Below, one piece after another: positions 62,281 through 63,550 of a stretch of DNA of 64,000 bases. Every line of letters begins with the position of its first letter. Within the stretch, counting starts at the first letter, position 1. The DNA is from Escherichia coli (GTDB lineage: Bacteria > Pseudomonadota > Gammaproteobacteria > Enterobacterales > Enterobacteriaceae). A program made the translations under genes and the position numbers. The notes beneath the pieces were generated by a model, which was not told the DNA's origin, ran no database searches, and saw nothing but the letters and a program-made list of their open reading frames with translations. The stretch lies in assembly GCF_003334785.1 (NCBI RefSeq), contig NZ_QOWV01000003.1. One strand, written 5' to 3'.

Positions 62281-62928
62281 ATGTATCTTGATACCAGCAA
62301 CGTACAGAGCCTGAAGGAAAAGCTGCTGTTATGCGCGGTTAATGAATTTGCCGAATATGGTTATGAAGGGGCCAGGGTCGATAATATTGTTAAGGCTGCG
62401 GGGTGTAGTAAACAGACGGTTTATCATCACTTTGGTAATAAAGAAAATTTATTTATTGAAGTACTGGAATATACCTGGAACGATATTCGACAAAAAGAAA
62501 AGGCCCTTGATTTCTCAGATCTTCCGCCACAAAAAGCCATTGAGAAAATTATTGATTTTACATGGGATTATTATATTGCTAATCCCTGGTTTTTAAAAAT
62601 TGTGCATAGTGAAAATCAAAGTAAAGGTGTGCATTATGCAAAATCACAGCGTCTCTTAGAAATTAACCATGCGCACTTGCAGTTAATGGAATCCTTATTG
62701 GATGAAGGGAAGAAACACAATATTTTTAAGCCAGATATCGACCCATTGCAGGTGAATATTAATATTGCTGCGCTTGGCGGATATTATTTGATCAACCAGC
62801 ATACGCTTGGCCTGGTTTATCATATCAGTATGGTTTCCCCCCAGGCACTGGAAGCCAGACGTAAGGTCATCAAAGAGACAATCCTTAGCTGGCTTTTGGT
62901 TGACCCTTCATCTACCGCGCACGAATAA
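62281..62928 (+). CDS. TetR/AcrR-family transcriptional regulator, divergent from the operon
   Basis: Track ORF 62257..62928 begins at a TTG; the ATG at 62281 is preceded by GGGGAAG and is the more likely start. N-terminal TetR HTH ([32 protein letters not shown]). Confidence 0.8.
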
Positions 62929-63550
62929 AACTGCCATCCGGCTGGCGGGTGAACAGGACCTGTTGATTATTCCCCGTATCAATGGTTAAGCCCGTCACCA
63001 CGCCGCTGGCGTTCTGGCGGATTTTCACCATTTGCCCGTTTTGCAAATTACTCAGCGGCTTACCCGCGCCTTCTACCTGCGCCATTGCATAGACATCGGT
63101 AGCGGGCAGTCCGTGGTCGCGGAACAGCTGCGCCATCGTTTTACCGGGTTCGACACGGTAAGAGCGCCATTGATTATCAATTCCGCTATCTGGCTGGAAT
63201 GGTTGTGTTTGGGTAGTTTGCGGCTGTTCTTCTGGCTGGCCTTCCTGTATAGGTTCTGGAGCGACCGGAGCCACCTGATCAGGATCATTTTGTGGTGTGA
63301 CTAATTGCGCCCGCAGCTGTTCTTCTGTCGGCGGTTGTGATTGCGACTGAATATCTAACTGCGCTTCACGCGTCACCACCGGCGCGTTGGGCGTATCATC
63401 AGATGGAAGCAGAAATCCGACCACCAATATAATGGCGGCAATAATGATCCCCCGACGATGCATCGGCGGCAGCGGGTCCATGAAGCGAAAATTGTCCGGC
63501 GCGTGCCAGACTTTCTCCAGGGTTGGTTTTAGTTCAAAGCGCCCGGGCAT
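62912..63550 (-). CDS. ytfB: OapA/LysM-domain protein YtfB (212 aa)
   Basis: Track ORF trimmed to [23 protein letters not shown]...; Pro/Gln-rich linker; its 3' end overlaps the TetR gene 3' end by 17 nt (convergent). Confidence 0.88.

Follow-up and report, generated by a model that had tools for sequence, protein, structure and literature searches.

An old, non-mobile variable locus between rplI and ytfB of Escherichia coli and its pseudogene remnant in K-12

The window, that is, the whole stretch of Escherichia coli DNA analysed here (64,000 nucleotides of contig NZ_QOWV01000003.1), shows 100% identity with E. coli ML35 across the 11.4 kb that was compared, and the gene calls used below are those of the RefSeq annotation of the identical ML35 record, converted to window coordinates. 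The conserved left flank is rplI (52584-53033, plus strand; open reading frame list and RefSeq annotation), followed on the same strand by an intrinsic terminator hairpin detected in a terminator scan (53055-53081). Next comes a swappable transporter module on the minus strand, present in the window in its TRAP form (53087-56027; delimited by blastn of strain PD4 against the window, the annotations and NCBIfam TRAP models), with the TRAP transporter genes dctP (53145-54116), dctM (54169-55470) and dctQ (55513-55989). A five-gene catabolic operon annotated by RefSeq, also on the minus strand (56010-62068), encodes an FAD-dependent oxidoreductase (56010-58091), a CoA-transferase (58088-59629), an enoyl-CoA hydratase (59639-60415), a xylose-isomerase-like TIM-barrel protein (60425-61267) and an SDR reductase (61277-62068); its gene order is kept in Salmonella, Citrobacter, Klebsiella and Leminorella. 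In an NCBIfam scan the enzymes had only generic family-level matches, which point to no pathway. The FAD-dependent oxidoreductase matched only models of fumarate-reductase/aspartate-oxidase-like flavoproteins, far under their cut-offs. It also outpaces its operon neighbours, with 76-79% amino acid identity to the Salmonella, Citrobacter and Klebsiella proteins versus 88-96% for the other enzymes.

A divergent promoter region (62069-62280) separates the SDR gene from that of a TetR/AcrR-family regulator (62281-62928, plus strand; RefSeq), an intact gene of 215 codons that is the full-length form of K-12 ytfA. A cluster representative 99% identical to this protein carries both PF00440 and PF17938, as expected of a TetR/AcrR member, and NCBIfam TetR-family models match over residues 7-155, under the cut-offs of specific equivalogs. 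Within the promoter region lies the palindrome ATCAACCA-N6-TGGTTGAT (62137-62158), which appeared as a hairpin in the terminator scan. Both of its arms are invariant in an alignment of 10 sequences from at least five genera, being kept in Escherichia, Salmonella, Citrobacter, Klebsiella, the enterobacterial locus L078 and Leminorella, and we consider it a plausible candidate for the TetR operator. The layout resembles the TetR/QacR paradigm in its HTH and ligand-domain architecture, its divergent arrangement and the conserved palindrome in a shared promoter region. It differs in that the C-terminal tail of the window TetR is encoded antisense to the neighbouring gene, and the operator here is a candidate only. 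GC content is 39.5% in the TetR gene, 41-45% in the TRAP genes and 50-55% in the enzyme genes; the AT-richer TetR and TRAP genes are compatible with a foreign origin at some time.

The regulator gene runs into the conserved right flank, ytfB (62912-63550, minus strand), beyond which fklB starts at 63769 on the plus strand. The preliminary description placed a 17-nt convergent overlap here, and the sequence bears this out: the TetR gene closes with TAA at 62926-62928, the ytfB stop codon lies in complement at 62912-62914, and the two genes share 62912-62928. RefSeq gives TetR as 62281-62928 and ytfB as 62912-63550 on the identical ML35 sequence, so the annotated overlap is identical. The last four TetR codons and the stop lie antisense to the stretch of ytfB that encodes FIRAR*, and the terminator scan found no terminator-like site near the overlap. 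This window-type junction is present in 4997 of 5426 E. coli genomes and is therefore not universal.

The same description had the variable segment begin right after the rplI terminator and end exactly at the overlap. The first edge stands, since all of the E. coli alleles compared (six, by blastn breakpoints and sequences of the junctions) part at 53086/53087. The second is correct only with respect to genera whose site is empty, where the boundary is the ytfB stop codon, the left edge of the overlap; relative to K-12, presence and absence end inside the TetR gene, at 62525/62526.

The slot at the left edge has several fillings in E. coli and its relatives. At 53086/53087 the window has the TRAP genes, INSC1002 and E. 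whittamii have an MFS gene alone, PD4 has yjfZ and MFS, MNCRE44 has an HTH-HipA toxin-antitoxin pair and MFS, and K-12 has yjfZ with a deletion. Blastn of PD4 places the other end of the TRAP/MFS swap at 56027/56028, in the last codons of the oxidoreductase. Among 5426 complete E. coli genomes, 3132 (58%) carry the intact form of the locus, as judged by a probe of the promoter and TetR 5' region that is deleted in K-12, and 1450 have the TRAP form. The stretch immediately after the rplI terminator is hypervariable (window 53082-53144; L004 3559-4423; L006 2188-4394; L010 1428-2363): most genera have an EamA-family gene there, and Escherichia has yjfZ (DUF2686), the HTH-HipA pair or nothing. 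As for the transporter itself, the TRAP module occurs in the window, Klebsiella huaxiensis and L078, and one MFS type is shared by further E. coli strains, E. whittamii, Citrobacter and Leminorella. Salmonella has a second MFS type, with just 52% identity to that of E. coli. Across genera, the TRAP genes have diverged to the same extent as the other genes of the cluster.

The right edge also varies within the species. A divergent TetR-ytfB haplotype, present in 389 of 5426 E. coli genomes (7%), differs from the window by about 20-25% over approximately 62060-63760. In its representative (L067, NZ_CP085488.1), nucleotide identity is 81% in TetR and 75.6% in ytfB, and identity in the SDR and fklB genes on either side is 97-98%. 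The divergent segment is 1.7 kb long, with crossovers in the start region of the SDR gene and in the ytfB-fklB spacer. A donor of the divergent YtfB allele was sought, and the allele was found only in E. coli, the next relatives being 82-83% identical. Here the stop codons of TetR and ytfB lie directly side by side with zero overlap, which makes the ancestral form of the junction uncertain.

Outside E. coli, TetR homologues at 87-88% identity are abundant in Salmonella enterica and also occur in a Citrobacter. The loci of Salmonella (L010/L011) and Citrobacter (L012/L013) have the order rplI, EamA, MFS, FAD oxidoreductase, CoA-transferase, hydratase, TIM-barrel, SDR, TetR, ytfB, and they show the 17-nt TetR/ytfB overlap as in the window. 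Klebsiella huaxiensis (L076) and L078 have the TRAP version in the same place with the same overlap. Leminorella has an MFS version of the cluster in an unrelated context.

Many other genomes have nothing at this site. A YtfB scan of species-representative genomes returned 44 loci, and in about 35 species the site is empty, reading rplI-EamA-ytfB or rplI-ytfB directly; the genera concerned include Enterobacter, Lelliottia, Leclercia, Yokenella, Pseudocitrobacter, Silvania, Citrobacter (five species) and others. When empty and occupied sites are aligned, homology stops exactly at the ytfB stop codon, and a GC-rich hairpin stands in the empty sites where occupied sites have the end of TetR. The two kinds of site also differ in the final few codons of EamA. 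Comparison across genera thus indicates that the cluster was not ancestral to all Enterobacteriaceae, as the site is empty in most genera.

The stop of homology at the ytfB stop codon suggests that the overlap is a junction scar. The tail of the regulator can be read against the same comparison. At the ytfB locus TetR ends in SWLL followed by V/I-D/T-x-x-x and the four codons antisense to ytfB, so that it extends about nine codons beyond the conserved SWLL. In Leminorella, where the cluster lies in its unrelated context, the protein ends ...SWLLQK*.

That the segment is an old chromosomal locus and not a recently mobilised one, as had been proposed from the window alone, agrees with these comparisons, in which Salmonella enterica, Citrobacter and K. 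huaxiensis have the same cluster at the same locus with the same junction and with divergence like that of the flanks. Between E. coli and Salmonella, the cluster genes have 44-62% identity at third codon positions, compared with 53% in ytfB and 61% in fklB. Cluster and flanks agree in the same way for Citrobacter, E. albertii, E. whittamii and K. huaxiensis, with the TRAP genes included. Given this match, the cluster must have been with its flanks for as long as the genera have diverged, or have been exchanged only anciently. An ancestral syntenic locus is thus found in Salmonella, Citrobacter and K. huaxiensis, and is not found in most other Enterobacteriaceae.

How the occupied and empty alleles came to be distributed is less simple. 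The Citrobacter survey found all five species representatives empty and one metagenome-assembled genome occupied, and deletions alone do not account for this patchiness, because the empty sites keep the ancestral hairpin. Strict vertical descent would need several losses that each restored the hairpin, and for this reason homologous replacement or a long-lived polymorphism has to be invoked. It could be argued from this that the distribution across genera is mainly the product of repeated transfer, with occupied or empty alleles moving by homologous recombination through the flanks in place of vertical descent. Besides the single occupied Citrobacter among mostly empty species, such transfer would fit the finding that the proteins of its cluster are 94-96% identical to those of E. 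coli when its YtfB is 81-83% identical, the occurrence of both TRAP and MFS forms in several genera, and the 1.7-kb divergent segment in E. coli, which shows that imports do happen here. However, in all the pairs compared, cluster and flanks show corresponding third-position identities, so any transfers must be old. Exact look-ups of the EamA and YtfB proteins also returned no empty Salmonella site, as all 24 contigs read for each of these two flank proteins were occupied. We consider it unlikely that transfer between genera was the main process, and prefer a cluster that has been kept with its flanks since an early date.

Movement as a mobile element is far less probable. The preliminary description saw no mobile-element hallmarks, and a wider search agrees, with no integrase, transposase, tRNA or flanking repeats found in the segment. 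The nine annotated genes of the segment all encode transport, enzyme or regulator proteins in RefSeq, and the NCBIfam scans concur. No integrase or recombinase gene is annotated at either edge from rplI to ytfB, no tRNA or tmRNA lies in 48000-64000, and the segment has no Rfam family matches. Direct or inverted flanking repeats were limited to short, imperfect, chance-level matches inside genes, with none at the edges; the comparison of empty and occupied sites revealed no target duplication; and no insertion sequence copies or terminal inverted repeats bound the segment in the window, as a composite transposon would have. E. coli genomes have, at the median, a single place matching the 11.4-kb query, which therefore contains no multicopy element. 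Plasmid carriage was considered and rejected, as the PLSDB matches are non-mobilizable records of 0.37-4.9 Mb; these records (H73-H80), filed as E. coli 'plasmids' carrying the locus, are probably whole or partial chromosomes entered under the wrong label.

That the segment is a genomic island or composite transposon of recent mobility, which entered between rplI and ytfB by site-specific insertion, might still be suspected from the lower GC content of the TetR and TRAP genes relative to their neighbours, from the unrelated context of the Leminorella cluster, and from the IS609, IS1 and HipA toxin-antitoxin module seen at the locus in some strains. These insertion sequences are nevertheless secondary insertions within the locus and not its borders. 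Together with the missing hallmarks, the single copy per genome and the want of a genuine plasmid carrier, the identical junction in four genera and a divergence equal to that of the flanking genes, which shows no sign of recent spread, make such an island highly improbable, and this reading is already largely refuted.

Mobile elements do strike the locus in other strains, with IS609 in ytfA, IS1 and the HipA toxin-antitoxin module as examples. In O157:H7-like genomes IS609, with tnpA and tnpB, splits ytfA, and in some strains IS1 sits inside that ytfA-borne IS609 or inside dctP. In strain TUM1881, IS1 replaces the region from dctP through the 5' region of TetR, an independent recent loss. The insertion sequences of these strains were read at L003 3622-5269, L008, L009 3112-3809 and L065 6288-6985.

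The reference strain K-12 has a different allele. In MG1655 the order is rplI, yjfZ (minus strand), the pseudogene ytfA (b4205; 4427694-4428095, plus strand) and ytfB (4428079-4428717, minus strand). The preliminary description suggested that ytfA might be a remnant of this TetR gene. The alignment against K-12 confirms this, as 400 of 403 nt are identical between NC_000913.3 4427693-4428095 and window 62526-62928, the segment equivalent to ytfA. The two are collinear and in the same frame, with the same 17-nt overlap with ytfB, so that ytfA is not unrelated to the TetR gene. By blastn, K-12 homology runs from window 62526 onward; K-12 ytfA lacks TetR codons 1-81 and the promoter, and the candidate operator palindrome is lost from the K-12-type allele. 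The identity of ytfA as an N-terminally incomplete TetR/AcrR gene was already known from annotation, since RefSeq labels the K-12-type gene 'TetR/AcrR family transcriptional regulator, incomplete, missing N-terminus'.

More than a simple deletion is seen in the K-12 allele, in which two junctions enclose a relic of the SDR reductase gene. This relic is an unannotated stretch of 102 nt between yjfZ and ytfA (NC_000913.3 4427587-4427688; L004 4588-4689), and it matches window 61878-61979 (minus strand) at 81% (83 of 102 nt). Its 19 mismatches are distributed 7/6/6 over the codon positions and it has in-frame stops, whereas in intact reductase alleles most differences fall at third positions (3/2/8, 2/2/7 and 5/3/18); the even spread and the stops identify a relic that is decaying neutrally. 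At junction 2 the reductase gene is joined to TetR codon 82. The 8-nt microhomology TCCGCCAC is present on both parental sides, at 61982-61989 in the SDR gene and at 62523-62530 in the TetR gene, where K-12 homology resumes at 62526. At junction 1 a point upstream of yjfZ is joined to the reductase gene within about 25 nt of patchy similarity. Junction 1 differs slightly between the deletion allele L066 and that of K-12, which leaves the order and number of the deletion events tentative. Strain PD4, which has yjfZ, MFS, operon and TetR all together, supplies the predicted parent of the K-12 allele.

The preliminary description spoke of a locus lost or replaced in the K-12 lineage. The loss is not specific to K-12: 2227 of 5426 complete genomes have this allele, counting those in which a probe across both K-12 junctions was covered over at least 80%, and it is also found in Escherichia sp. 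E1V33. The ytfB of E1V33 is 90.8% identical to that of K-12, yet both deletion junctions are the same; E1V33 additionally lacks the yjfZ coding sequence. The relics of E1V33, K-12 and the O157-type have an in-frame stop in common, and relic divergence is 8% between K-12 and an O157-like strain and 16% between K-12 and E1V33. The shared junctions, the shared stop and this divergence indicate that the deletion is old and was not an event of the K-12 lineage. That the arrangement of yjfZ and a short ytfA is instead ancestral in E. coli, with the operon and the 5' half of TetR added later, is almost certainly wrong, for even though the allele is common (41% of genomes) and present in another Escherichia species, the N-terminal HTH half, present in the full-length gene of all other genera, is missing from its ytfA, a degraded 102-nt fragment of the reductase gene persists in it with stops and an even spread of substitutions, its junction microhomology is typical of deletions, PD4 has the predicted parent structure, and an insertion would have had to recreate the exact reading frames of two genes.

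We conclude that the TetR/ytfB overlap is very probably the right-hand scar of an old, non-mobile cluster that was later kept with its flanks, and that the K-12 allele arose from it by two deletions. In this scenario a cluster consisting of a transporter, five enzymes and a divergent TetR repressor would have been placed between an EamA-family gene and ytfB, in the ancestor of, or in an early donor to, Escherichia, Salmonella, Citrobacter and Klebsiella. We infer this insertion from the aligned empty and occupied sites. Placement may have occurred by illegitimate recombination, which would have removed the hairpin terminator and left no spacer before the ytfB stop. TetR would thereby have lost its own stop, and would read about nine codons further to a TAA that is antisense within the last ytfB codons. 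Afterwards, as seen in the comparisons, the cluster has been passed on together with its flanks, and its only changes have been deletions and the exchange of modules by homologous replacement. The allele of K-12 is old and would derive from two deletions, for which the junction sequences suggest a microhomology-mediated mechanism. One may have run from upstream of yjfZ into the reductase gene, and the other may have started in the reductase gene and taken out the promoter and operator as far as TetR codon 82. What remained would be the 102-nt relic of the reductase gene and, as ytfA, the 3'-terminal 403 nt of TetR.

Both parts of this history have parallels. Deletions arise by illegitimate recombination or by replication slippage at short repeats, and the 8-nt repeat at both parental sides of junction 2 and the patchy similarity at junction 1 are of this kind. 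The K-12 allele differs from the usual case in having two junctions with a relic kept between them, and in being ancient, with junction sequences that have since mutated. Strain-variable chromosomal regions at fixed sites between core genes are pan-genome hotspots or regions of genome plasticity. The rplI-ytfB interval is like them in having identical core flanks with alternative contents (TRAP, MFS, yjfZ, HipA toxin-antitoxin module, deletion), in its exchange by homologous recombination in the flanks, and in variable DNA that lacks mobility genes. Its content, in contrast, is mostly old and syntenic across genera, and only the slot next to rplI is hotspot-like.

Published work touches the locus at a few points. 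A survey lists ytfA as a TetR-family regulator present only in some E. coli strains (PMC6790063), clones carrying ytfA-ytfB cause filamentation (PMC3614548), and the spacer between yjfZ and ytfA is bound by RpoD holoenzyme and H-NS (PMC3946193). We found no paper on the function of the operon or on the history of the locus. The case is that of an ordinary old, non-mobile variable locus with a pseudogene remnant, already annotated in part, and it is new only in its details, namely that the deletion has two junctions and is old, that the overlap probably originated as a junction scar, and that a divergent haplotype exists. A difference from K-12 is that the window has the intact 215-amino-acid regulator gene together with its promoter, the palindrome and the target operon.

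These results explain the K-12 pseudogene ytfA and the unannotated relic that adjoins it, and they illustrate how DNA that varies between strains can be a long-standing syntenic locus, remodelled by deletions and by homologous exchange of modules, and not a mobile island. The practical value is modest: the analysis flags an uncharacterised TetR-controlled catabolic cluster that is present in 58% of complete E. coli genomes and absent from K-12, and it supplies a candidate operator for that cluster. It also shows that ytfB, a cell-division gene, is without its usual terminator wherever the cluster is present. The intact operon (58%) and the ancient deletion allele (41%) coexist in E. coli, the deletion junctions are found again in another Escherichia species, both old transporter versions (TRAP and MFS) are spread over several genera, and the divergent TetR-ytfB haplotype reaches 7% of E. 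coli. From this it is possible, though we hold this only tentatively, that the rplI-ytfB interval carries long-lived polymorphisms that cross species boundaries. If true, such a trans-species polymorphism would suggest that an uncharacterised organic-acid pathway is under balancing or niche-specific selection or, alternatively, that selection acts on the cell-division gene ytfB, whose terminator-less transcript must read antisense into TetR.
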